Below, in pieces: positions 8,882 through 58,658 of a DNA stretch of 64,000 bases. The position numbers and the translations under genes are program-made. This stretch comes from a virus (Duplodnaviria; Heunggongvirae; Uroviricota; Caudoviricetes), in the IMG/VR virus record IMGVR_UViG_2778261352_000001, positions 1 through 64,000 of that record. One strand, 5' to 3'. Within the stretch, counting starts at the first letter, position 1, and each line of letters opens with the position of its first letter. Under the pieces are notes generated by a model, which saw nothing but the letters and a program-made list of their open reading frames with translations, searched no databases and was not told the DNA's origin.

Positions 8882-9321
8882 TTGGCTGGGGTGTATGCGT
8901 TCTTGCGTTAGCCTTAGCCGATCGCTATTTGCTAAAACGCAAGGACATCACGCATTTAGAACTTGGTGATGTGGAAATTAAACCGGGTTTCATCCGGGTG
9001 CCGTTCAAATACCGGTCTAAATTCCCGTTTTTGCGCGGCGCAACGGTCAGATATTGGATCCGCGATGTTCAGAAGCCGACGACAGTGATTGAAGGCGAAC
9101 AACGTTGTTTGACGTCGGCTGAACAGGGCGAAAACAGTGAATGGTTGTACATACCCACTGAATATATGGGTAAAGGAGAGCGACTGTGGCATTTCAACGT
9201 CATGGTTACGCATGGCGACTCGTTCATTAACCCGTTGTATCGGATTTTCCCTGTTACTCAGCAAATCCGCAGAAGTTACGTAATAAATCTCGCACAGGAT
9301 GTGTCAGATGACGAAAAATAA
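8878..9321 (+). CDS. lydB: LydB-like holin antagonist
   Basis: 147 aa, ATG overlapping upstream stop, AGGGAGG RBS; synteny. Confidence 0.45.
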   Translation: MIGWGVCVLALALADRYLLKRKDITHLELGDVEIKPGFIRVPFKYRSKFPFLRGATVRYWIRDVQKPTTVIEGEQRCLTSAEQGENSEWLYIPTEYMGKGERLWHFNVMVTHGDSFINPLYRIFPVTQQIRRSYVINLAQDVSDDEK

Positions 9322-18146: not shown

Positions 18147-18166
18147 CAAGTGATTTGCATTATCCT
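18147..18166 (+). promoter_or_regulatory. putative late promoter (CAAGTGATT-N5-TATCCT)
   Basis: late-promoter 9-mer with one mismatch upstream of lyz. Confidence 0.35.
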
Positions 18167-18253: not shown

Positions 18254-18811
18254 ATGAAGGGAAAAACAGCCGCAGGAGGCGGTGCAATTTGCGCTATCGC
18301 GATGATGATTACCATCGTGATGGATAATGGCAATGTGCGAACCAACCAGGCGGGGCTTGAGCTTATCGGAAACGCTGAAGGTTGCCGACGTGATCCATAC
18401 AAGTGCCCGGCGGGTGTATGGACCGACGGGATCGGTAATACACACGGGGTAACGCCTGGCGTGCGAAAAACCGACCAGCAAATCGCCGCTGATTGGGAAA
18501 AGAATATCCTGATCGCTGAACGCTGTATTAACCAGCACTTCCGGGGCAAAGACATGCCCGATAATGCCTTCAGCGCAATGACAAGCGCGGCATTCAATAT
18601 GGGATGCAATAGTTTACGGACCTACTACAGCAAAGCGCGAGGCATGCGAGTCGAAACGTCCATCCACAAGTGGGCGCAGAAAGGGGAATGGGTGAATATG
18701 TGTAACCATCTCCCTGATTTTGTGAACAGTAACGGCGTCCCCCTGCCCGGGTTAAAGATTCGCCGTGAAGAAGAACGCCAGCTTTGCCTGACGGGGCTTG
18801 TCAATGAATAA
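18254..18811 (+). CDS. lyz: SAR-type endolysin (lysozyme)
   Basis: MKGKTAAGGGAICAIAMMITIV signal-anchor-release N-terminus, then lysozyme core; matches P1 Lyz from memory; ATG 18254. Confidence 0.85.
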   Translation: MKGKTAAGGGAICAIAMMITIVMDNGNVRTNQAGLELIGNAEGCRRDPYKCPAGVWTDGIGNTHGVTPGVRKTDQQIAADWEKNILIAERCINQHFRGKDMPDNAFSAMTSAAFNMGCNSLRTYYSKARGMRVETSIHKWAQKGEWVNMCNHLPDFVNSNGVPLPGLKIRREEERQLCLTGLVNE

Positions 18812-19058
18812 ACTCCGGCAGCTCCGCCGACTTTCGACAATGAAGTTATCGCTGGCGGCGATAGTTTTTGACTCGATTTTCATGGCGGTATATGTGCTCA
18901 ATGAGACGTGGCCACTGGAACCGCTATTATATGCCGGGCTTCGGCTGTGCCTGACATTTTTGAGCATGGCTGCAAGATTGATGCAGCAGAAAGAAACCGC
19001 TTCAGATTGCCCACGTCGCGCGGTGCGCAAATATATGGCACGCAGACGAAGGCGATAA
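18798..19058 (+). CDS. hypothetical small membrane protein with poly-Arg tail
   Basis: 86-aa ORF overlapping lyz stop; two hydrophobic segments. Confidence 0.3.
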   Translation: MSMNKLRQLRRLSTMKLSLAAIVFDSIFMAVYVLNETWPLEPLLYAGLRLCLTFLSMAARLMQQKETASDCPRRAVRKYMARRRRR

Positions 19059-19071
19059 TAGTTAACGATAA

Positions 19072-19098
19072 CCCCGGCAGCCGCCGGGGTTATTTTTG
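19072..19098 (+). terminator. rho-independent terminator
   Basis: CCCCGGC-AGCC-GCCGGGG stem-loop followed by TTATTTTT. Confidence 0.6.
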
Positions 19099-19102
19099 GT
19101 GG

Positions 19103-21833
<2,731 letters not shown>

Positions 21834-34460: not shown

Positions 34461-35312
34461 ATGATAAATTATGTCTACGGCGAACAACTGTACCAGGAGT
34501 TCGTCAGCTTCAGGGATCTCTTTCTAAAAAAAGCTGTTGCACGCGCCCAACACGTTGATGCCGCCAGCGACGGTCGTCCTGTACGCCCGGTTGTCGTTCT
34601 GCCGTTTAAAGAAACGGACAGCATTCAGGCTGAAATTGATAAATGGACTTTAATGGCGCGGGAACTGGAACAGTACCCAGACCTCAATATCCCAAAGACT
34701 ATTTTATATCCAGTGCCTAACATCCTTCGCGGTGTGCGTAAGGTTACGACTTATCAGACAGAAGCTGTGAACAGCGTCAACATGACCGCTGGCCGCATTA
34801 TTCATCTGATTGATAAGGACATTCGCATCCAAAAAAGCGCGGGGATCAATGAGCACAGTGCGAAATACATAGAGAACCTGGAAGCAACAAAAGAGCTAAT
34901 GAAGCAGTACCCGGAGGATGAAAAATTCCGTATGCGCGTACACGGCTTTAGCGAAACAATGCTGCGCGTCCATTACATTTCCAGTAGCCCTAACTACAAT
35001 GATGGTAAATCAGTTAGTTACCATGTGCCGCTATGTGGTGTGTTTATCTGCGATGAAACTCTCCGTGATGGAATCATCATCAACGGTGAATTCGAGAAAG
35101 CAAAATTTAGCCTTTATGACTCTATAGAACCGATCATCTGCGACCGCTGGCCGCAGGCAAAAATATATCGCCTGGCAGATATTGAAAATGTAAAAAAACA
35201 AATTGCCATCACTCGCGAAGAGAAAAAGGTCAAATCAGCCGCATCAGTTACGCGCAGCCGTAAAACTAAGAAGGGGCAGCCAGTAAACGACAACCCCGAA
35301 AGCGCGCAATAG
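34461..35312 (+). CDS. c1: C1 repressor of lysis
   Basis: 283 aa, MINYVYGEQLYQEFVSFRDLFLKK...; cognate 17-bp operators throughout window. Confidence 0.95.
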   Translation: MINYVYGEQLYQEFVSFRDLFLKKAVARAQHVDAASDGRPVRPVVVLPFKETDSIQAEIDKWTLMARELEQYPDLNIPKTILYPVPNILRGVRKVTTYQTEAVNSVNMTAGRIIHLIDKDIRIQKSAGINEHSAKYIENLEATKELMKQYPEDEKFRMRVHGFSETMLRVHYISSSPNYNDGKSVSYHVPLCGVFICDETLRDGIIINGEFEKAKFSLYDSIEPIICDRWPQAKIYRLADIENVKKQIAITREEKKVKSAASVTRSRKTKKGQPVNDNPESAQ

Positions 35313-35336
35313 TTTCTATCCGGCATGGTCAATGAG

Positions 35337-36821
35337 TTATTCATTAAGCCATGCCAGAGCTTCATCAACCTGCGCTTCGTCTTCGACGCTAAGCACTTCA
35401 TCCTGGGGAACATAATCCGCCAGCATAGCGAAACAATATGTATCCCAATGGTCTGGTGAGTGCAGGTTGAGTTTTTTCTTCATATCCTCCTTACTCATCA
35501 CCTTCCATTGACCTGCGGAGTTAATCCCTACAGGGATTTTCGACGCTTCCTCAATAGTTTCATTACCCTTATCCAGTCTCATACGACCAGATTTTACGGC
35601 CTCTGCGGCTTGAACGTTGGCATAAGCACGTTTATCAAAGTACAGGCTCTTATCTTCACGGCTATGCATCTTTTTACCCCAGCGTATACGCTGTACGGTA
35701 ATACCATAATACTCGTACATCAGATCCGCCGTTGCTTTACCCAGGCCATCGCCGTCTATCGCTATGGTGATATTTGGGAATCGCTCAGGATTACATTCTG
35801 CGAAAATTTTGGCGGCAAGCTGCGTTTCTGTAACGTCTGTGTATTTCAGCATTCGATAGTTGATTACACGGCGTTTATTTCGCTGGCCGGACACCATCAT
35901 GATATTGATAACGGACTTATCCCGTCCCGTACCACCAGCAACGTCCACACATGCAAGCCAGCCCCATCCTTTGGCAATCTTGACTTTCCGCCGCGTTGCA
36001 CGTTCAACCTCATCACGTCCAAGAAGGAAGCCATCCTGTGATTTAGGAAATAGGCCGCGTACCTTAATCATGTACATAGGGTTATCACGCCCGCCGTACT
36101 CCGCCAGCTTCATTTTGATAAATGCTGGCGTTACCAGCGGTGATTCCTCACTGTTAAGCGTGATCGCCGTATAAACGCCATCAGGGTTACCAGGACGCTT
36201 GGCCAGTTTATGGTGAGTATCGTAGAAATACCCGCTTGGGCGTGTAGGCTGTGACAGCAATAAGATGCGGTTATCCAGTCCGGTAAGAGCACCGGTGATG
36301 ATACCGAAAGCTCTATCACTGACACCGGAGGCTTCATCGATAATATACAGAAGATGATCTGCGTGTTCACCTGCGAGAGCTTCTTCACTTCCCAGACGAA
36401 AGCCCTTCGGTACTACAGTCCATACACCTTTACCAGTAACTTCATAAAAAGCGGTTTCTGTCAGAACAAAATAATCAGCAAGCCATGGAAAACGGCTGGT
36501 GGCCGTAGCCCAGTTTATCTTGATGTACTTGAATATACCGGTCATTACCTGCTGAATTTTGTTCGCAACGATAATGGCACGGGCACCGGGATACATGATT
36601 ATGAACAACATGATCATGATAGAAGTCATGTCTGATTTCCCGGTACCGTGACCAGACGAAACAGATGTCTTGCTACCCTGTTCCTGCACAGACTCAATAA
36701 TCAGATCCTGCTGCCAGGTAGGTGTTTTGCCGAACAAAACATCAGCGGCAGCAATCCAGTCATAACGATATAGCGCCACCAGCTCGCGCCAACGTGGATC
36801 CGTTACGCAACTTCTGGCCAT
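35337..36821 (-). CDS. pacB: terminase large subunit PacB
   Basis: 494 aa, Walker A GHGTGKS, Walker [10 protein letters not shown]-terminal nuclease region. Confidence 0.9.
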
Positions 36822-42334: not shown

Positions 42335-42601
42335 TTAAAGCTCACATTTCCAGATGGTATTCTGAACACCCGAACCGGGAGCGAGATGGGGATTAGCGTT
42401 CGCGCTATGCTGATATACGGCTTTAGACTTCCCATATTGCTGACAGGCTTTATCTGCGGTTTTTTGCAAGCTATCAAGGCCATACCAACCATCTGACTGT
42501 ATGCTTACCTTTTCACCGTCGTTGTATTGCACCATTGCACACCCAGATATAGCCAGTATCGCGCCGACAATAACGCTTTTCCATAAAACTCTATACAACA
42601 T
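42335..42601 (-). CDS. lipoprotein (Plp-like)
   Basis: signal peptide with lipobox LAISGC; ATG 42601. Confidence 0.55.
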
Positions 42602-42646
42602 AGACAAAAATCCCCTCTGTGAATTGAGGGGATTTTAGCATGGTGA

Positions 42647-44813: not shown

Positions 44814-44820
44814 ACTTACC

Positions 44821-44943
44821 TCACTTAATAAAACAACTCCATACGTAGTTGATGATTTTTTCCCACGTAATATAAATCTGCACTCCGGCAGTAAAACCAA
44901 AGCCAACAATTGCTGAAAAAATCAAAACATTTACTTTTGACAT
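44821..44943 (-). CDS. possible 40-aa hydrophobic peptide
   Basis: ATG 44943, MSKVNVLIFSAIVGFGFTAGVQIYITWEKIINYVWSCFIK, stop 7 nt before next ATG; below ORF-track size cutoff. Confidence 0.3.
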   Translation of the reverse strand: MSKVNVLIFSAIVGFGFTAGVQIYITWEKIINYVWSCFIK

Positions 44944-44991
44944 TATAAATTTTCTCTCGGTGTCGTAGGTGATAGCACCATAATTGATAAT

Positions 44992-45225
44992 TTAGTGAGT
45001 TAGCAGCTCCATTTTTTGGATGATTTCCGCATGAGCATCATCGTTATCAACACTTAACTCGTTTAATGCCTCTCGCACCACATCAACTTCTTCTGGTTGG
45101 AAGAAATCATCTCGGTAGTCACCAAATAGAACCGAAACAAGCCTGCCACCAGCAACATCAAGATTGGCGCTAACAGGTGGCTCTTTACCATCCTCAAATT
45201 CGACTACAAAAGTTATTTTTCCCAT
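44992..45225 (-). CDS. hypothetical acidic protein
   Basis: 77 aa from ATG 45225. Confidence 0.4.
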   Translation of the reverse strand: MGKITFVVEFEDGKEPPVSANLDVAGGRLVSVLFGDYRDDFFQPEEVDVVREALNELSVDNDDAHAEIIQKMELLTH

Positions 45226-45307
45226 CGTTACCACCAGCGACAAATTGAATACAAACCCAGTGCTGCCGCCATCACAATTCCTACCGTGGTGAATGCTTCA
45301 GGCCAGC

Positions 45308-46579
45308 TCATTGATTCACCTCCTGCGGCGGTTCTGGTAGCGGCATCCAGTGTGACGGTTTCCACGACGCACCAGGAATTATCCACCCATCATTAGCGTC
45401 AGGATGCCCCGGGATGTAAGTAGCCCATTTCATTCGCCAGTCACCTTTCCTGTCAAACTCCACGGCAACAAGAACGGCTGTTTTGGTATTCGGCATTCGC
45501 TCACTACAGCTTATCCAACCATCCGGAGTTACCGGAGAGTTGCCAGCTAGTCTACGCAAAACAGCCTTAACAGCCTCAATACGGTCATCATCGCAACTTT
45601 CCAGCGTATCTATGCGATCGAGCATGATGATGGCGTTATCAATATCAGGATTGCCGGTCCACTCATTACCGCGATTGGATTCGGCAGCCTGGTTGCCAGA
45701 TGCTGGTTGATTGTCGGCATGGCTATAGCTAACAGCACGGCAGGCATCCTCAACGCCTTTAACTGCATCTGCGCAGTAGTTATAGCGATTGCATTCCACT
45801 AATTTCCGTTTGAGTTTTTCAATTGCCTGCGCGACATCAGCCTGTATTACCGGAACTGGCGGAACGGCTGTTTGCTCTCGAACGTCATTAGTCGCTATCG
45901 GTTCTGCTGCCAACTGACTGGCATATTTGTTAATGGTAACGATAAGCTCTTGCTCAGCCTCATCCAGACAATCATCGATACCTCGCCTGTCACCGTCAAA
46001 ATCATCGAAATCGGCACGAATCTTGGCAACCTTCAGGATTGCGGACAACACCTCACTAGGAATTACCGGATAGTTGGTTGACGTTTCCGCGATTTCCCGA
46101 AAATTATTGGTTGACGAATTCTTGTTTTCCCGAAAGTTTCCGGACTGAAGCATGGCGTCGCTCCGCTCTATACCATCCAGCGCGATTCGCAGTGCCTGAA
46201 TTGTGGTAGAGCTATCGTTTGGGGCTATTCCATATCGCTCGAATACAGCTAAATGGTTGCGCATAATCTCAGGCGTAAGCTCTTTGTAAGCATAAGCAAG
46301 AGGCTCTGATGCATTATCCGGCACAACCGACGCAGGCGCGGCAGCATAAACAGGAATAACGTCCGCTTGCTCTTTATTGCTTTCATCCGTTAAAGCCCAG
46401 AATAATTTCCCGGCCGGATGTTTGAAAATATAAGCAACTGGTTCTGCTTCCAGTGATGCCAGCGCAATTTTGTATACTTCCAGATCCATTTGTGCAGTTA
46501 CTAAATCAGGATAACGATCCATAACCGTTATATTGCGCTTAATCATCTCTATTAATTGTTCTTTAGTAAAAGTGGTCAT
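45308..46579 (-). CDS. hypothetical protein with DUF551-like C-terminus
   Basis: 423 aa; C-terminal DGWISCSERMPN...SHWMPLPEPP; N-terminus shared with 47012-47398. Confidence 0.5.
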   Translation of the reverse strand: MTTFTKEQLIEMIKRNITVMDRYPDLVTAQMDLEVYKIALASLEAEPVAYIFKHPAGKLFWALTDESNKEQADVIPVYAAAPASVVPDNASEPLAYAYKELTPEIMRNHLAVFERYGIAPNDSSTTIQALRIALDGIERSDAMLQSGNFRENKNSSTNNFREIAETSTNYPVIPSEVLSAILKVAKIRADFDDFDGDRRGIDDCLDEAEQELIVTINKYASQLAAEPIATNDVREQTAVPPVPVIQADVAQAIEKLKRKLVECNRYNYCADAVKGVEDACRAVSYSHADNQPASGNQAAESNRGNEWTGNPDIDNAIIMLDRIDTLESCDDDRIEAVKAVLRRLAGNSPVTPDGWISCSERMPNTKTAVLVAVEFDRKGDWRMKWATYIPGHPDANDGWIIPGASWKPSHWMPLPEPPQEVNQ

Positions 46580-46589
46580 TCGTTATGCC

Positions 46590-46787
46590 TCAATACACAA
46601 AATCTGTTTTAAATTCATGGTTACATTCTGGACAGCATGTTTCGTAACCTTTTATTTCTTCACATGCCTGTTTTGCTCCAGAAAATTCCCAGAAATCTGG
46701 ATCACAAAGCAGATCGAAATTGTGACCGCATTTTGGACATTCGGTATCAAGTGACAGATTCCAGTAAGCAGTGGTGTTTTTATCCAT
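46590..46787 (-). CDS. small zinc-ribbon protein
   Basis: 65 aa, CPKC...CCPEC; ATG with AAGGAG RBS. Confidence 0.45.
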   Translation of the reverse strand: MDKNTTAYWNLSLDTECPKCGHNFDLLCDPDFWEFSGAKQACEEIKGYETCCPECNHEFKTDFVY

Positions 46788-46788
46788 A

Positions 46789-47052
46789 TCAGTCTCCTTT
46801 ACCCGCTGCTTTCTCCTGCTCTTTAGCAAGCCGCTCCGCTTCTCTGAAATCCCAATCCACTCGATGTGCTATATCAATTGCAGAACGCACGGTCCGTTCA
46901 ATTAGCGTGTCCAGATTATCAATTGTCATTGCCATATCTGGATTGCGAGATAAAATCTCCGCCCTCTGAATCTGCCAGTTGTTGCAGGTTTCAAGTAATG
47001 AGTTAGCCATATCACTTTCCTTTCCCATGAAGCATAGCCGCGCGGCAGGCAT
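46789..47052 (-). CDS. hypothetical protein
   Basis: 87 aa, ATG start. Confidence 0.4.
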   Translation of the reverse strand: MPAARLCFMGKESDMANSLLETCNNWQIQRAEILSRNPDMAMTIDNLDTLIERTVRSAIDIAHRVDWDFREAERLAKEQEKAAGKGD

Positions 47053-47398
47053 TCCAGCCTCTTACCTCTGCAATAGCGGCAACAGCATCAACCGCGTACA
47101 TGCTAAGAGGATTAGGCATTGGTTTTTCTTCCGGTACTACTGGAACGGGGGGAGCGGCGTAGACCTCAATAATTCCATTATCAATAGGCCACTCCCCATC
47201 CTTGATGTAGTCACTTGTGCCGTCAACTTGCTGTTCTGCAATGTGGAATGCACCTATTGGTTTTGCTTCCAGCGATGCCAGAGCAATTCGTGCCAGTTCT
47301 TCCGCTTCTTCTGCTGGCAGTACAACGTTGCTACCAGGTCCGTATGTTTCGCGCCACTGCTGGATTGTCAGCAGGCGTTCTTTGGTAATAGTGATCAT
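47012..47398 (-). CDS. hypothetical protein (shares N-terminal module with 45308-46579)
   Basis: 128 aa; IALASLEAKP motif. Confidence 0.45.
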   Translation of the reverse strand: MITITKERLLTIQQWRETYGPGSNVVLPAEEAEELARIALASLEAKPIGAFHIAEQQVDGTSDYIKDGEWPIDNGIIEVYAAPPVPVVPEEKPMPNPLSMYAVDAVAAIAEVRGWNACRAAMLHGKGK

Positions 47399-47533
47399 GC
47401 TGCGTTTCCTTCTTTCTTATTAACAATTACACCGTCATATATTTCATTAAGGTGCCCTCTCAACTCCATGCGCCTTAATGCAGATAACATGTAATCGCAT
47501 TCAACCTGCTTATTTCCAGTAAATGGCTTATCG

Positions 47534-47606
47534 TCAGGATTAACGGACTCGAACCGCTGACATCCTGCTTACAAGGCAGGCGCTCTACCAACTGAGCTAA
47601 ACCGGC
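47534..47606 (-). tRNA. tRNA-Thr-like (anticodon UGU)
   Basis: canonical D-arm, anticodon stem-loop CCUGC-CUUGUAA-GCAGG and T-arm GGTTCGAGTCC; acceptor stem pairs only 4 of 7 in manual fold. Confidence 0.5.
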
Positions 47607-47608
47607 AT

Positions 47609-47684
47609 TGGCGATGGTGGATGGATTTGAACCATCGACCCGTTGATTAACAGTCAACCGCTCTAACCACTGAGCTACACCATC
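47609..47684 (-). tRNA. tRNA-Asn (anticodon GUU)
   Basis: perfect cloverleaf by hand: acceptor GATGGTG/CACCATC, anticodon loop CUGUUAA, T-arm GATGG-TTCAAAT-CCATC, encoded CCA. Confidence 0.8.
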
Positions 47685-51526: not shown

Positions 51527-51866
51527 GTTGTAACCCTTGAATATCAACCACAGAAAGCTCGTCTTTGTAGAAAAAGGCCAGGTTGTGGCACCCCCTCGTT
51601 TGAGCGTATGAGCTGGGACCAATTTCGTTCTTCCAGACAAATGGCTTCAAATCCGTACGGCGAAGCATAAAAACGCGATTTGTTCCGCTCTGATTCCCAA
51701 TGAGGCAAAAGCCTTCTTTCACCTTGATAGCCTGCAAGTTGTCGAGTTCACCGCTGGTTACACGGCTATCGAACTCCTTGCGGCTTATTAGCTCCATCTG
51801 CATCTGACGACTCCAAACAAATGCCCATTGAAGGGCGATGGCTGAATGGTACCGAAAACACGACAT
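51519..51866 (-). CDS. hypothetical protein upstream of hrdC (Uhr-like)
   Basis: ORF overlapping hrdC start by 8 nt; ATG 51866. Confidence 0.35.
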
Positions 51867-51874
51867 AAAAAACA

Positions 51875-51891
51875 ATATTTATTAGAGCAAT
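51875..51891 (-). promoter_or_regulatory. C1 repressor operator (uhr-hrdC-dmt operon)
   Basis: reverse complement ATTGCTCTAATAAATAT. Confidence 0.6.
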
Positions 51892-51972
51892 TTTATAATA
51901 AGTAAACGCCATGTAGACCACAAACAACCTAAGTTAAAATAACGAAAATCAGAGCAAATCATTGGTGATAAC

Positions 51973-52257
51973 GTGGCAAGTATTGCAACAAAAGACAGCA
52001 TTTGTTCGGGGCACGGAGGATTCCCATCCAGGCCTCCTGTAGAGAGTGAACCACTACTTAAAGTCAACGGAGTAGAAGTGTTAGTTGATGGTAAGCAATA
52101 TGCACAGCATACCGATGGAAACAGTACGCACGGTGGGCAAGCTATATCAACCAGGGCATGGTTTACCGTCAATGGTAAAGGGGTCGTATGCGTTGGTGAC
52201 CCTGTTTCATGCGGCTCTACCGTAGCATCAGGAGACGGCCTAGTTCAGGTAAGTTAG
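51973..52257 (+). CDS. PAAR-like spike-tip protein
   Basis: 94 aa; Gly/His/Cys pattern CSGHGG...VCVGDPVSCGSTVASG reminiscent of PAAR domain. Confidence 0.4.
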   Translation: MASIATKDSICSGHGGFPSRPPVESEPLLKVNGVEVLVDGKQYAQHTDGNSTHGGQAISTRAWFTVNGKGVVCVGDPVSCGSTVASGDGLVQVS

Positions 52258-52265
52258 GAGATATC

Positions 52266-53054
52266 ATGCTGGAAAAAGACTACCAGTTATCCGCATATAA
52301 AAAATTGGCCGCCGCCGGTGGGATGAAAACACCTGGTGCCATAACATCGGCACGAAACAGTGCTAACACGGCAAAACAGCTTGCAGAAGAATTGACCGGA
52401 TTAATTTTGGATACAATTGTCTATCCCGACACTATTACCAGCTATGTTTCAACGATCAGAACAACCATAACCGGCTTAACGAACATTGGAGAACTGGCAA
52501 CTAAGCACGCGGACCTGTTGGCTGGTTATGCAGATCTGTCAATGCTGCTTCAACTCGATATTGGTTGGGATGTTTACTGCCGTGCTAATGAGCGAGAAGT
52601 ATCAGAACTGCCGATCTCTATTGCCATTGGTGATGTGAATATTACTAAATCGCTTGAGGACGCTGTTAACGCGCTTAATACATCAAGTTTAGTCGCTGCT
52701 ATGGGGGAGATTAACCAGACCCTTAACACTGGCTCAGGAAGCTCGTCAGACTCTGGTTCAGGCGGCGGAACTGCCACTCCCCCACCAGCATTAACAGAAG
52801 AACAAATTGAATCTCTGAAAGTAGCAACTGAACAGTTTGGGGTTGTTTTCAACCACACAACAGCGCCCACAACTGCGTTACAACAGCAGTATGAACGAGC
52901 GAATGAAAGCGCCAACGTAGCCATAACTGCTTATAACCATGCTATCGGTACCGCGCTTGCTGAAGCATCAGCAAACAAGGCCAGCACAGCCAGCGCAGTC
53001 GCCGCTTTGGTTCCTGATTCTGTTCTTGATGAATTAAACAAAGCGGCACAGTAA
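52266..53054 (+). CDS. hypothetical protein
   Basis: ATG 52266 after AGGAG RBS; Ser/Gly-rich linker. Confidence 0.45.
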   Translation: MLEKDYQLSAYKKLAAAGGMKTPGAITSARNSANTAKQLAEELTGLILDTIVYPDTITSYVSTIRTTITGLTNIGELATKHADLLAGYADLSMLLQLDIGWDVYCRANEREVSELPISIAIGDVNITKSLEDAVNALNTSSLVAAMGEINQTLNTGSGSSSDSGSGGGTATPPPALTEEQIESLKVATEQFGVVFNHTTAPTTALQQQYERANESANVAITAYNHAIGTALAEASANKASTASAVAALVPDSVLDELNKAAQ

Positions 53055-53093
53055 CAAAGGACTTCATTGATAATTTTTCTTCAGGAGGAAGAC

Positions 53094-53516
53094 ATGTCAT
53101 TCTTTTCTACGTTAAAAACAGCTTTGTCTTTGAAGGAGAAACTTGCTGCTACTGGTGTTCTTGTTCTGATTTGCGCACTTGTTGGTGCTGGGTTTGCATG
53201 GGAACGTCATCAGCTAAAGCAAGCCATGGAGAAAATTGGCAGTCTTGATCAGGCTGTTAAGGAACGTGATAAGTCAATAATGGATCTTAACCAGACCATT
53301 GAGACGATGAACAAAGCAGATCAACATTTTCACAGCCAGGAAGTGAAAAATGAATCAGAGCAAGCCAAGTATGCTGACAGGCAAATGGAACGAAAAGCTG
53401 AAGTTCAGAAACAACTGGTTGCGGCGGGTAATGTTCGCCAGCGTATTCCTGCTGACACTCAGCGGTTGCTCCGGGAGTCGATCAGCGAATTTAACGCCGA
53501 CGCCGACAAAGGTTAA
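53094..53516 (+). CDS. i-spanin-like protein (Rz-like: N-terminal TM, coiled-coil)
   Basis: ATG 53094 with AGGAGG RBS; TM segment then coiled coil. Confidence 0.45.
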   Translation: MSFFSTLKTALSLKEKLAATGVLVLICALVGAGFAWERHQLKQAMEKIGSLDQAVKERDKSIMDLNQTIETMNKADQHFHSQEVKNESEQAKYADRQMERKAEVQKQLVAAGNVRQRIPADTQRLLRESISEFNADADKG

Positions 53517-53682
53517 TCACCCTGCCCCAAAAAGTGCATTTATGTGCAGGATGCCAGAGTTTAGCAGTGAATATTTTGATGATCTGCCAGCGTATATCCT
53601 CGATACAGAAACGATGCTGAGGGGGATTAACAGGAAGAATCGCAACGTCAATGATTACAACCGTGCTATCAGCGGTAACTAA
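53431..53682 (+). CDS. o-spanin-like Pro-rich lipoprotein overlapping 3' end of previous gene in another frame
   Basis: MFASVFLLTLSGCSG lipobox, LTPTPTKVNHPAPK; Rz1-like overlapped architecture. Confidence 0.5.
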   Translation: MFASVFLLTLSGCSGSRSANLTPTPTKVNHPAPKSAFMCRMPEFSSEYFDDLPAYILDTETMLRGINRKNRNVNDYNRAISGN

Positions 53683-53693
53683 AAGGAAAAACT

Positions 53694-54053
53694 ATGTCCG
53701 ATATGGAAATTGAAAAAGAGATTCTGGCCAAAGGCAAAACAGCACCACGCCTGACTCCTGATCACATCGAGAGTGTGATTGCCGAAGAGCATTATTTCAC
53801 AGCTTTTGACGGCATTCGCGCTGCGCATGAAGGCGTTCGTGAGGTGCTGTCTGTTCATCCCTCTACGCGTAGCCTGACCATCTGTGTCTTGGTGCTGTAC
53901 AATGGATTCATTGTTACGGGGGAAAGCGCCTGTGCCAGCCCTGAAAATTTCGACGCGGAGATTGGCCGTAAGATAGCCCGTAAGAACGCCATTGAGAAAA
54001 TCTGGCCGCTGGAAGGTTATCTGCTGAAGCAAAAGCTCAGCGAGCAGATTTAA
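53694..54053 (+). CDS. hypothetical protein
   Basis: 119 aa, ATG with AAGGAAAA RBS. Confidence 0.45.
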   Translation: MSDMEIEKEILAKGKTAPRLTPDHIESVIAEEHYFTAFDGIRAAHEGVREVLSVHPSTRSLTICVLVLYNGFIVTGESACASPENFDAEIGRKIARKNAIEKIWPLEGYLLKQKLSEQI

Positions 54054-54123
54054 TCAACTATAGAAATCGTAATATCAACACTCATGACTTTACTTTGGCA
54101 GGAAGCCACTAAGGACAAACAAC

Positions 54124-54525
54124 ATGTTTGCGGTTAAACAAGAAATAAACAACGCTACTTCTCTGTTCGAAATTGAGAGTATTACCGTTGGATATCCTGG
54201 TTCAGATCAATTTAAACAGGCGTTCGAGATTGCTGAAGAACTGGGGATCAAAACGCCTGATGCGATTGAATATATCCCTGTTGCGTACGAAGATGAGGAG
54301 ATGACAAAGGCAATCGGGGAAGAGCAAACTTTGAGTACAGAGCGTAAGGATGTACAGCGGGATGACTGTATCGCCGTGATTTGCTCTGAGGTTGCTTCTG
54401 AAATGTTCCCTGACCTCCCTGCCATGGGAGGTGTTGGTTATCAATTCCTCTACAAAGGTGATACGTTACGTATCTATACAAGTAGTTTGTTGATCGAAGA
54501 AGTAGGTACGGAAAACGACAACTAA
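54124..54525 (+). CDS. hypothetical acidic protein upstream of oriR
   Basis: 133 aa, ATG start. Confidence 0.45.
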   Translation: MFAVKQEINNATSLFEIESITVGYPGSDQFKQAFEIAEELGIKTPDAIEYIPVAYEDEEMTKAIGEEQTLSTERKDVQRDDCIAVICSEVASEMFPDLPAMGGVGYQFLYKGDTLRIYTSSLLIEEVGTENDN

Positions 54526-54574
54526 TTCGCTTCAACCCTTCACAGAAATCGGTCCTCAGTGGCCGGTTTTTCAC

Positions 54575-54592
54575 TTATCCACATTATCCACT
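54575..54592 (+). promoter_or_regulatory. tandem DnaA boxes at plasmid origin, followed by a GATC cluster
   Basis: TTATCCACA and TTATCCACT; five GATC at 54598-54655. Confidence 0.55.
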
Positions 54593-54691
54593 GGATAGAT
54601 CCAATAATTAGGTCCATACAGATCCCAATTAGATCCATATAGATCCCTGATCGTTGCAGGCCGCGCCACGTCTGGCTTAGAAGTATATCGC

Positions 54692-54795
54692 GATGTGTGC
54701 TGGAGGGAAAACGATGTGTGCTGGCGGGATAAAAATGTGTGCTGACGGGTTGCTAATGTGTGCTGGCGGGATATAGGATGTGTGCTGACGGGAAA
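54692..54795 (+). repeat. five 19-bp RepA iterons (oriR/incC)
   Basis: GATGTGTGCTGGAGGGAAA and four variants at about 21-bp spacing. Confidence 0.85.
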
Positions 54796-54851
54796 GCCTG
54801 GGTAGTTATCATCACTTATAAAAACTATCCACATAATTCGGAAAAAGTATT

Positions 54852-55712
54852 ATGAATCAATCTTTTATCTCCGATATTCTTTACGCAGACATTGAAAGTA
54901 AGGCAAAAGAACTAACAGTTAATTCAAACAACACTGTGCAGCCTGTAGCGTTGATGCGCTTGGGGGTATTCGTGCCGAAGCCATCAAAGAGCAAAGGAGA
55001 AAGTAAAGAGATTGATGCCACCAAAGCGTTTTCCCAGCTGGAGATAGCTAAAGCAGAAGGTTACGATGACATTAAAATCACCGGTCCTCGACTCGATATG
55101 GATACTGATTTCAAAACGTGGATCGGTGTTATCTACGCGTTCAGCAAATACGGCTTGTCCTCAAACACCATCCAGTTATCGTTTCAGGAATTCGCTAAAG
55201 CCTGTGGTTTCCCCTCAAAACGTTTGGATGCGAAACTGCGTTTAACCATTCATGAATCACTTGGCCGCTTGCGTAACAAGGGTATCGCTTTTAAGCGTGG
55301 TAAAGATGCTAAAGGTGGCTACCAGACTGGTCTGTTGAAGGTCGGACGTTTCGATGCTGACCTCGATCTGATCGAGCTGGAAGCCGACTCGAAGCTGTGG
55401 GAGCTGTTCCAGCTTGATTATCGCGTCCTGTTGCAGCACCACGCCTTGCGTGCCCTTCCGAAGAAAGAAGCTGCACAAGCCATTTACACTTTTATCGAAA
55501 GCCTTCCGCAGAATCCGTTGCCGCTATCGTTCGCGCGAATCCGTGAGCGCCTGGCTTTGCAGTCAGCTGTTGGCGAGCAAAACCGTATCATTAAGAAAGC
55601 GATAGAACAGCTTAAAACAATCGGCTATCTCGACTGTTCAATTGAGAAGAAAGGCCGGGAAAGTTTTGTAATCGTCCATTCTCGCAATCCAAAGCTGAAA
55701 CTCCCCGAATAA
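54852..55712 (+). CDS. repA: plasmid replication initiator RepA
   Basis: 286 aa, flanked by iteron arrays. Confidence 0.95.
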   Translation: MNQSFISDILYADIESKAKELTVNSNNTVQPVALMRLGVFVPKPSKSKGESKEIDATKAFSQLEIAKAEGYDDIKITGPRLDMDTDFKTWIGVIYAFSKYGLSSNTIQLSFQEFAKACGFPSKRLDAKLRLTIHESLGRLRNKGIAFKRGKDAKGGYQTGLLKVGRFDADLDLIELEADSKLWELFQLDYRVLLQHHALRALPKKEAAQAIYTFIESLPQNPLPLSFARIRERLALQSAVGEQNRIIKKAIEQLKTIGYLDCSIEKKGRESFVIVHSRNPKLKLPE

Positions 55713-55997
55713 GTGTGTGCTGGAGGGCAGCTGCATTCAAAAAATGTGTGCTGCCGGGAAGGCTTGTCCAATTTCCCGTTTTTGATGTGCGCTGGAGGGG
55801 GACGCCCCGCAGTTTGCTCAGACTTTCCCTCCAGCACACATCTGTACATCCGTTTTTCCCTCCAGTGCACATGTAATTCTCTGTCTTTCCCTCCAGCACA
55901 CATATTTGATACCAGTGATCCCTCCACAGCACATAATTCAATGCGACTTCCCTCTATCGCACATCTTAAACTTTTATTCTCCCTCCAGCACACATCG
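55712..55997. repeat. nine RepA iterons in both orientations (incA copy-control locus)
   Basis: three forward TGTGTGCTGGAGGG-type then six inverted CCCTCCAGCACACAT-type repeats. Confidence 0.8.
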
Positions 55998-56269
55998 AAG
56001 CTGCCGGGCAAGCCGTTCTCACCAGTTGATAGAGAGTGAAGCCTGGCTGCCCGTTGAAGCAGGAAATCACCAAAATGATTCAGGCTACAACCTGAACGTA
56101 GAAGAAATCCGCGTCCTTTATGCGTGGAGGATGCCAAAGCATGTTGTGAGACACCTTGCAAAGGAGTAAGCATGCAGAGAATGCTATGTACAAGCATCTA
56201 CGCATACATTATTATTTTATGCAGCATTTCTAATTAAATTCAAAAATACAGCATAAAGGATGACTTTCG

Positions 56270-58638: not shown

Positions 58639-58658
58639 CAAGTGACTTTCAATAAAAT
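58639..58658 (+). promoter_or_regulatory. putative late promoter for head gene (CAAGTGACT-N5-TAAAAT)
   Basis: exact 9-mer, 5-nt spacer, -10-like hexamer upstream of 58689. Confidence 0.5.

Follow-up and report, generated by a model that had tools for sequence, protein, structure and literature searches.

A pair of overlapping genes beside a plasmid replicon, tens of kilobases from the nearest endolysin and holin genes, raises the question whether it can encode a two-component spanin, the envelope proteins with which P1 and related phages are predicted to disrupt the outer membrane of the host when infection ends. The locus in question spans positions 53094-53682 of the first 64,000 nucleotides (nt) of the virus record IMGVR_UViG_2778261352_000001 (Caudoviricetes); this whole 64-kb stretch is called the window below. 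The two open reading frames (ORFs) that had been predicted here from the letters (53094-53516, and a second frame ending at 53682) were indeed present. The surrounding DNA had 98% nucleotide identity to phage P1 and to related phages (P7, SJ46, RCS47, JL22 and others), the window was colinear with the P1 genome in reverse orientation, and the 286-amino acid (aa) ORF downstream of the pair (54852-55712) was the P1 plasmid replication initiator RepA. The window is P1-like phage-plasmid DNA, and the locus corresponds to P1 ppfA (P1_gp064) and mlp (P1_gp063). We take the pair to be the predicted two-component spanin of this phage-plasmid, orthologous to P1 ppfA (i-spanin) and mlp (o-spanin), with a probability of roughly 0.88, on the basis of the identity with P1, the anatomy of the two proteins, the selection on both reading frames, the PHROG families, the late timing in P1 and prior curation.

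The P1 pair has been catalogued and annotated before, so that the finding, though correct, is an ordinary one. SpaninDB (Kongari et al. 2018, PMC6139136) lists it as an overlapped two-component spanin (class 'ovl'), with gp064 as the i-spanin (140 aa, Shine-Dalgarno (SD) sequence AGGAGG, no periplasmic Cys) and gp063 as the o-spanin (110 aa, SD AGGA, lipobox TLSG-C, a mature protein of 71 aa and one periplasmic Cys). Bednarek et al. 2022 (PMC9025707), who interchanged the i- and o- labels of the two genes, also named ppfA and mlp as the spanin genes of P1 and gave Summer et al. 2007 as the source of the identification. In RefSeq mlp carries the name 'Rz-like spanin', and the two genes appear as Rz and Rz1 in several GenBank records. 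A late-2025 preprint on P1vir contained no experimental update on ppfA or mlp.

Anatomy of PpfA and Mlp

The first gene, ppfA (plus strand, ATG 53094 to TAA 53516), encodes a protein of 140 aa that matches phrog_89 and is 98.6-99.3% identical to P1 PpfA (2 of the 140 residues differ). It is preceded by the SD sequence AGGAGG (53083-53088), which ends 5 nt before the ATG and is the one given for P1 gp064 in SpaninDB. PpfA has a single strongly hydrophobic stretch, residues 17-36 (LAATGVLVLICALVGAGFAW, encoded by 53142-53201), and the top 19-residue Kyte-Doolittle window (2.35) starts at residue 17; across 19 homologues the hydrophobicity of this transmembrane (TM) stretch is kept while its sequence varies. 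The protein is thus laid out as a short cytoplasmic N-terminus, a TM helix and a helical periplasmic domain of 104 aa in two segments, that is, with the N-terminal TM helix and the mostly alpha-helical periplasmic domain of an i-spanin, and its predicted orientation is type II (N-in/C-out). An AlphaFold2 model built on the 19 homologues (mean predicted local distance difference test score 67.7) placed helices at residues 13-110 and 120-137, interrupted at 111-119. The dominant hydrophobic periodicity of the periplasmic helix was about 3.6 residues, and in the best heptad register 57% of the a/d positions were hydrophobic versus 32% of the residues overall. The description of the protein in the original prediction as a TM/coiled-coil protein therefore stands for the TM helix and the helical periplasmic domain; oligomerisation as a coiled coil is suggested by the helicity and by this periodicity. 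The only Cys of PpfA lies inside the TM helix, so that the periplasmic part has none, and the protein contains a single Pro.

The second gene, mlp (plus strand, 53350-53682, with the stop codon TAA at 53682), lies in the +1 frame relative to ppfA and encodes an o-spanin precursor of 110 aa, two of which differ from P1 Mlp. Its first 167 nt (53350-53516) are a dual-coding overlap (ppfA in frame 0, mlp in frame +1), and it runs 166 nt past the ppfA stop. mlp thus begins within the i-spanin gene, in a different frame, and continues past its end, as in the overlapped class, and the i-spanin/o-spanin architecture that had been proposed for this locus was found at the sequence level. A lipobox L-S-G-C (53458-53469) had also been proposed, and it fits the consensus [LVI][ASTVI][GAS]C of Kongari et al. 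(PMC6139136) in a regular-expression search; its Cys, the predicted site of lipid attachment (codon 53467-53469), is invariant in the relatives. The lipobox is preceded by a hydrophobic core of 10 residues and a K/R-rich n-region. For the near-identical P1 gp063, SpaninDB records a LipoP cleavage at residue 39 (PMC6139136). The residue at +2 is Ser, so there is no Asp signal for retention in the inner membrane. With its lipobox, its Cys and no retention residue, Mlp has the features of an o-spanin and is a predicted lipoprotein.

The mature o-spanin would consist of 71 aa (53467-53679). It had been called Pro-rich, which fits its N-terminal part (TPTP, HPAP; four prolines within the first 22 residues) and not the rest, the total of 6 Pro in 71 residues being moderate. 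The pair has one periplasmic Cys, residue 66 of the Mlp precursor (codon 53545-53547), which is a candidate to form an intermolecular disulfide; with no such Cys in PpfA, a covalent dimer would have to arise through Mlp Cys66. The motif around it (AFMCRMPE) was invariant in all relatives, and this Cys aligns with a Cys of P2 LysC.

Conservation, start codon and family of mlp

An open frame is in itself no evidence for a gene here, since the window contains many long open segments: 386 of at least 60 aa, with ORFs of 116-117 aa on the opposite strand near the pair. A lipoprotein-like N-terminus (lipobox, hydrophobic core, upstream K/R and a start codon) is much rarer and was found in two of these 386 segments, one of them mlp. 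The other is an ORF of 90 aa on the minus strand (42335-42607) with a clean lipoprotein signal before CAMVQ..., located near hot in an accessory region that is shared only partly with RCS47. We considered this ORF as a rival or second o-spanin and rejected it, as it lies in an accessory region and has no TM/helical partner gene.

For a distant comparison we used four contigs (from Cronobacter, Salmonella and Klebsiella aerogenes) with a PpfA that is 59-63% identical. In all four the +1 frame is open for 110-122 codons and the lipobox Cys stands in the same column; the lipobox itself varies (LSAC, LNGC, LNAC) around the invariant Cys, and LNGC is among the deviant o-spanin lipoboxes listed by Kongari et al. 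(PMC6139136). The overlapped ppfA/mlp arrangement is thus conserved in four lineages. Mature Mlp was 77-79% identical across the distant lineages, versus 48-54% for the N-terminal 85 residues of PpfA. In the part that codes for PpfA only, identity at ppfA codon positions 1, 2 and 3 was 0.62-0.66, 0.68-0.74 and 0.46-0.47, respectively; in the overlap conservation was higher at all three positions (0.85-0.87, 0.80-0.84 and 0.57-0.64). Past the ppfA stop, third positions of mlp codons carried 20-28 differences in 55 sites, versus 15-16 in 108 sites for positions 1 and 2 together (Fisher p = 0.002, 1e-6 and 2e-6). Because the lipoprotein-like N-terminus is rare, the frame and its Cys are conserved and third positions are preferentially changed, mlp is a real gene and not a chance open frame.

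This gene is easily lost in annotation. The gene calls on the related contigs (L003-L006) omit the o-spanin or give a 3' fragment of 46-52 aa that lacks the signal peptide, and GenBank MH422554.1 (2143-2283 in L002) gives the name 'outer membrane lipoprotein Rz1' to a 46-aa fragment of mlp. The authors of SpaninDB noted that gene callers systematically overlook overlapped o-spanin genes (PMC6139136). A tblastn search of a phage collection with PpfA yielded no annotated distant relative, the matches being limited to P1-like phages and Cronobacter phage JK004 (59%). P1-like phage-plasmids commonly carry resistance genes in Enterobacteriaceae, and because gene callers miss or truncate the o-spanin, correct coordinates and a correct start are important for them. 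The observation carries little weight as a discovery; its practical value is that of an annotation check.

Regarding the start, mlp had been predicted to begin at ATG 53431. That codon exists, and we nevertheless found ATG 53350 to be better supported, which lengthens the overlap from 86 to 167 nt. An SD sequence (AGGAAG, 53338-53343) lies inside the ppfA codons Q-E-V, 6 nt before ATG 53350, and the same SD is marked in SpaninDB; all distant relatives keep an SD (AGGAGG) and have an ATG no more than one codon away from position 53350. The P1 annotation in RefSeq and SpaninDB both start mlp at the equivalent position, and it is this start that supplies the K/R-rich n-region of the signal peptide. 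The resulting signal of 39 residues was flagged 'too long' by the curators of SpaninDB (PMC6139136). Starting at ATG 53431 would leave a signal peptide of 12 residues without positive charge; this codon has no clear SD, and its Met is specific to the P1 lineage and absent in the distant relatives. A third codon, TTG 53419 (overlap of 98 nt), also lacks an SD; an ATG occupies its column in each of the three distant lineages, and a start there would give a canonical lipoprotein signal of 17 residues, (M)RRVMFASVFLLTLSG, directly before the Cys. ATG 53350 is therefore most likely the start of mlp, and TTG 53419 may be an alternative, second conserved translation start. Mature Mlp is identical whichever of the three is used. 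A less likely possibility is that Mlp is made from both ATG 53350 and TTG 53419, with the long and short signal peptides tuning the amount of outer-membrane lipoprotein.

Both proteins matched PHROG families labelled 'Rz-like spanin' that they share with the P2 pair LysB/LysC. PpfA matched phrog_89 ('Rz-like spanin', E-value 2.5e-25, residues 21-139), and Mlp matched phrog_30284 (6e-77) and phrog_456 (1e-5), although helical, charged sequences can inflate such profile scores. With the same library, P2 LysB matched phrog_89 (5.8e-61) and P2 LysC matched phrog_456 (1.7e-31) and phrog_30284 (5.4e-4). The Rz and Rz1 proteins of phage lambda fall in phrog_13 and phrog_3198, and neither PpfA nor Mlp matched these. 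In line with the P2 matches, hhalign aligned the Mlp profile with P2 LysC over 62 columns (83% probability, E-value 8.4e-6), and the alignment takes in the lipobox Cys, the PTP motif and the second Cys. The pair had been called Rz/Rz1-type, which describes its architecture and presumed function well; in sequence it is probably LysB/LysC-like, and it has no detectable homology to lambda Rz/Rz1.

Timing, function and other readings

The timing of expression could be taken from P1 itself, though not from the element studied here. In the RNA sequencing data of P1vir (PMC8201110, Table S1) ppfA rose from 5.57 at 10 min to 11.25 at 30 min and mlp from 4.15 to 10.53 log units, increases of 5.7 and 6.4 log units that are those of late genes. 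The group upfC, upfB, ppfA, mlp and upfA as a whole went from 4.1-5.6 at 10 min to 10.5-11.2 at 30 min, and known late genes behaved similarly, e.g. lyz (6.05 to 11.35), lydA (5.21 to 11.77) and head gene 23 (5.44 to 12.07). The divergent early genes uhr, hrdC and dmt went from 8.6-9.4 to 11.1-12.0 and parA from 9.46 to 11.46; transcripts of parA, parB and repA were already high at 10 min (PMC8201110). The late timing of ppfA and mlp fits a function in lysis.

How the pair would act can be sketched with the spanin model of lambda Rz/Rz1 (PMC6139136, PMC9025707), from which the steps beyond the sequence signals are borrowed. Mlp would be lipidated on Cys40, cut by signal peptidase II and sorted by the Lol system to the inner leaflet of the outer membrane, probably forming a homodimer through its single conserved periplasmic Cys. 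The C-terminal parts of PpfA and Mlp would then bind each other across the periplasm, threading the peptidoglycan mesh, and the complexes would build up harmlessly during late gene expression, restrained by intact peptidoglycan. Once the holin LydA and the signal-arrest-release (SAR) endolysin Lyz have destroyed the cell wall, the complexes would be free to move and to change conformation, and would fuse the inner and outer membranes, so that the last barrier to virion release is removed. The +1 overlap ties ppfA and mlp together physically and makes their evolution a shared constraint, and the pair is located in a late unit (upfC-upfB-ppfA-mlp and the next gene) beside the plasmid replicon, and not in a lysis cassette as in most phages.

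Several observations weigh against this spanin reading. An Lpa-type late promoter (the -22/-10 motifs of LPlyz and LPdar) was absent from the plus strand upstream of upfC and ppfA, in a search that did return LPdar and LPlyz themselves (8505 and 18148) as well as a probable promoter at 58640. A scan for sigma-70 promoters upstream of upfC and ppfA gave nothing above the expectation from shuffled sequence, and the P1ppfA promoter predicted by RefSeq is weak in the window (ttgatg / cacagt). A Pfam scan of both proteins returned no Rz or Rz1 match at E-values up to 1 (sub-threshold coiled-coil noise and a weak LPAM_1 match were all it gave), and the best NCBIfam matches stayed below their cut-offs, with PpfA scoring 18.4 bits against TIGR03495 (phage_LysB, cut-off 92.75 bits) and Mlp 14.9 bits against NF038368 (P2_Rz1/LysC, cut-off 27 bits). 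Alignment of PpfA with the single P2 LysB sequence by hhalign was not significant (1.4%), with a shallow alignment as input (number of effective sequences 1.6), nor were the alignments with the lambda proteins (1.6% for PpfA/Rz and 5.9% for Mlp/Rz1). PpfA lacks a periplasmic Cys, and its coiled coil is a tentative assignment. According to PMC9025707 the assignment of the P1 spanin rests on predicted features and its function is unverified. Finally, in a genome-wide CRISPR interference study both genes were scored as non-essential for plaque formation, with plating efficiencies of P1vir of 1.3/1.2 for ppfA and 0.24/0.19 for mlp; the same study gave 5e-4/0.15 for lambda Rz, 0.05/0.0035 for lyz and 0.023/0.026 for lydB. 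Because spanins are dispensable for lysis in shaken laboratory cultures (PMC9025707), a missing plaque defect is weak evidence against such a function.

Among the other readings, one accepts the two genes and questions their task: the P1-type pair would not be the dedicated or sole lysis spanin, having another or an additional envelope role, or P1 would have a redundant outer-membrane route. It is suggested by the fact that the pair is unlinked to the other lysis genes, lies in a PAAR-headed unit by the replicon, is expressed late without a recognisable Lpa promoter and can be knocked down with plaque formation intact, and we consider it unlikely.

Another reading, in which Mlp is an envelope lipoprotein expressed by the prophage, with PpfA associated and the spanin layout a mere resemblance, appears quite improbable. 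Roles such as surface exclusion, receptor masking or serum resistance, as for lambda Bor, T5 Llp and Cor, would agree with the position of the pair, which adjoins the genes for plasmid replication and partition (repA at 54852) and no lysis gene, with the lack of a plaque phenotype after knock-down, and with the upstream region, for which RefSeq predicts only sigma-70 promoters of ppfA and in which the late motif is missing. The kinetics of the pair are nevertheless those of late genes and unlike those of parA, parB and repA, both proteins match the PHROG families of P2 LysB and LysC, and a type-II membrane protein with a lipoprotein gene overlapping in the +1 frame is the defining layout of a spanin (SpaninDB) and is conserved here; the plaque result, as said, counts for little, spanins being non-essential in shaken cultures (PMC9025707).

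The element itself raises the possibility that ppfA and mlp are intact but functionless relics in a deletion derivative that lacks baseplate and helicase genes and perhaps never lyses cells. About 20.6 kb of P1 (MH422554 63.1-83.7 kb), carrying ban, dbn, the baseplate genes 5, 6, 24, 7, 25 and 26 and pmgL-pmgV, is absent at window positions 44820-47537, where about 2.7 kb of accessory ORFs is found instead. The right breakpoint of this gap is the 3' end of a tRNA-Thr gene (47533-47605, minus strand), which is adjoined by a tRNA-Asn gene (47609-47684, minus strand), and no plasmid in PLSDB holds both sides of the junction contiguously, the top matches all being split at about 47.54 kb. At a second discontinuity with P1 (about 1168-1171; window 535-1171 equals MH422554 40364-41000 and 1168-2526 equals 34561-35919) about 4.4 kb is missing, covering most of sit, pmgB and tub. 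For window 2527-7907 (the tail-fibre/C-segment region) megablast gave no match to the P1 genome MH422554. The source may thus be a defective P1-like plasmid or a rearranged assembly. We find the relic explanation very improbable nonetheless: the window covers only 64 kb of the element, and the missing genes could lie outside it; ppfA and mlp contain no frameshift or premature stop and differ from P1 by two residues each; and the explanation concerns the host element, not the identity of the genes. The chance that the +1 frame is an accidental ORF and ppfA the only real gene is negligible, for although long ORFs in non-coding frames are common in the window (e.g. the 116-117 aa ones) and gene callers skip or shorten this one, a frame that stays open and codes for a conserved mature protein at about 60% PpfA identity, with its SD and ATG conserved and a third-position bias with p down to 1e-6, already refutes it.

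Gene neighbourhood and closest known systems

The predicted spanin pair is preceded on the plus strand by upfC (51973-52257, PAAR/T4 gp5.4-like) and upfB (52209-53054), both named after the RefSeq annotation of the homologous P1 region, and these genes are probably part of the same late transcription unit as ppfA and mlp. A terminator scan found no terminator-like structure between ppfA and mlp, and an Rfam scan found nothing in or near the two genes. The uhr-upfC intergenic region (51804-51972) contains a C1 operator (the equivalent of Op68, at about 51876-51892) and a perfect TATAAT at about 51895-51900 on the plus strand that lacks a good -35 element. Downstream, mlp is followed by a gene for a PF13876 protein of 119 aa (53694-54053, plus strand; the gp49/gp66 family of N4 gp49 and Sf6 gp66) and by an ORF of 133 aa (54124-54525, plus strand) that precedes the plasmid origin (oriR) and repA. 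In the phage collection only phage vB_EcoM-813R1 (ON470617.2) matched window 53687-56167; in the relatives from Cronobacter and Salmonella (L003 and L004) mlp is likewise followed by this PF13876 gene. Between the spanin pair and oriR there appears to be a site at which genes are exchanged. Among the accessory ORFs at the site of the large gap is one of 423 aa (45308-46579, minus strand), in a stretch whose matches in plasmids carry the annotation DUF551.

The other lysis genes were located by tblastn with the P1 proteins, and they are indeed distant, as had been remarked from the sequence. The genes lyz (18254-18811, encoding the SAR endolysin), lydD (18804-19058) and lydE (18908-19123), with products 97%, 100% and 92% identical to the P1 proteins, respectively, lie 34 kb upstream of ppfA/mlp on the plus strand. 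A lydC-like holin gene (about 8232-8450), lydA (8552-8881, encoding the holin) and lydB (8878-9321, encoding the antiholin) lie about 44 kb upstream, also on the plus strand. The late promoter motifs of LPlyz and LPdar start at 18148 and 8505, respectively. The lydC product was 67% identical to P1 LydC, versus 100% for LydA and 98.6% for LydB, so this lysis region is locally mosaic. The residual interest of the locus lies in its predicted spanin function and in the late promoter of the unusually scattered lysis genes of P1.

When compared with known systems, the pair is closest to ppfA/mlp of P1, with which it shares 98% nucleotide identity, the SD sequences, the starts, the lipobox, the overlap and the upstream genes upfC and upfB. 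Differences are found downstream, where upfA follows mlp in P1 and the PF13876 gene and the 133-aa ORF follow it in the window, and in the element as a whole, from which about 20 kb of P1 genes is missing.

The comparison with lambda Rz/Rz1 (PF03245 and PF06085) is one of predicted topology and mechanism, a type-II helical inner-membrane protein being combined with an outer-membrane lipoprotein encoded in the +1 frame, and homology with these proteins was not detectable. The layout also differs, in that lambda Rz1 lies wholly within Rz (embedded) whereas mlp extends 166 nt beyond ppfA (overlapped), and mature Rz1 has 40 aa versus 71 aa for mature Mlp.

Beyond P1, the closest known system is probably the overlapped spanin pair LysB/LysC of P2, to which the pair is probably remotely homologous, as judged from the shared PHROGs, the direction of the NCBIfam matches, the alignment of Mlp with LysC and the nearly identical layout. 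In P2, lysB and lysC come directly after the holin gene Y, the endolysin gene K and lysA in one cassette, whereas the P1-type pair is unlinked, and P2 LysB, unlike PpfA, has periplasmic Cys residues. In both systems the o-spanin gene lies in the +1 frame and the dimensions are much alike: the i-spanin has 141 aa in P2 and 140 aa here, the overlap measures 146 nt and 167 nt, and the genes lysB and lysC of 426 and 291 nt correspond to ppfA and mlp of 423 and 333 nt.

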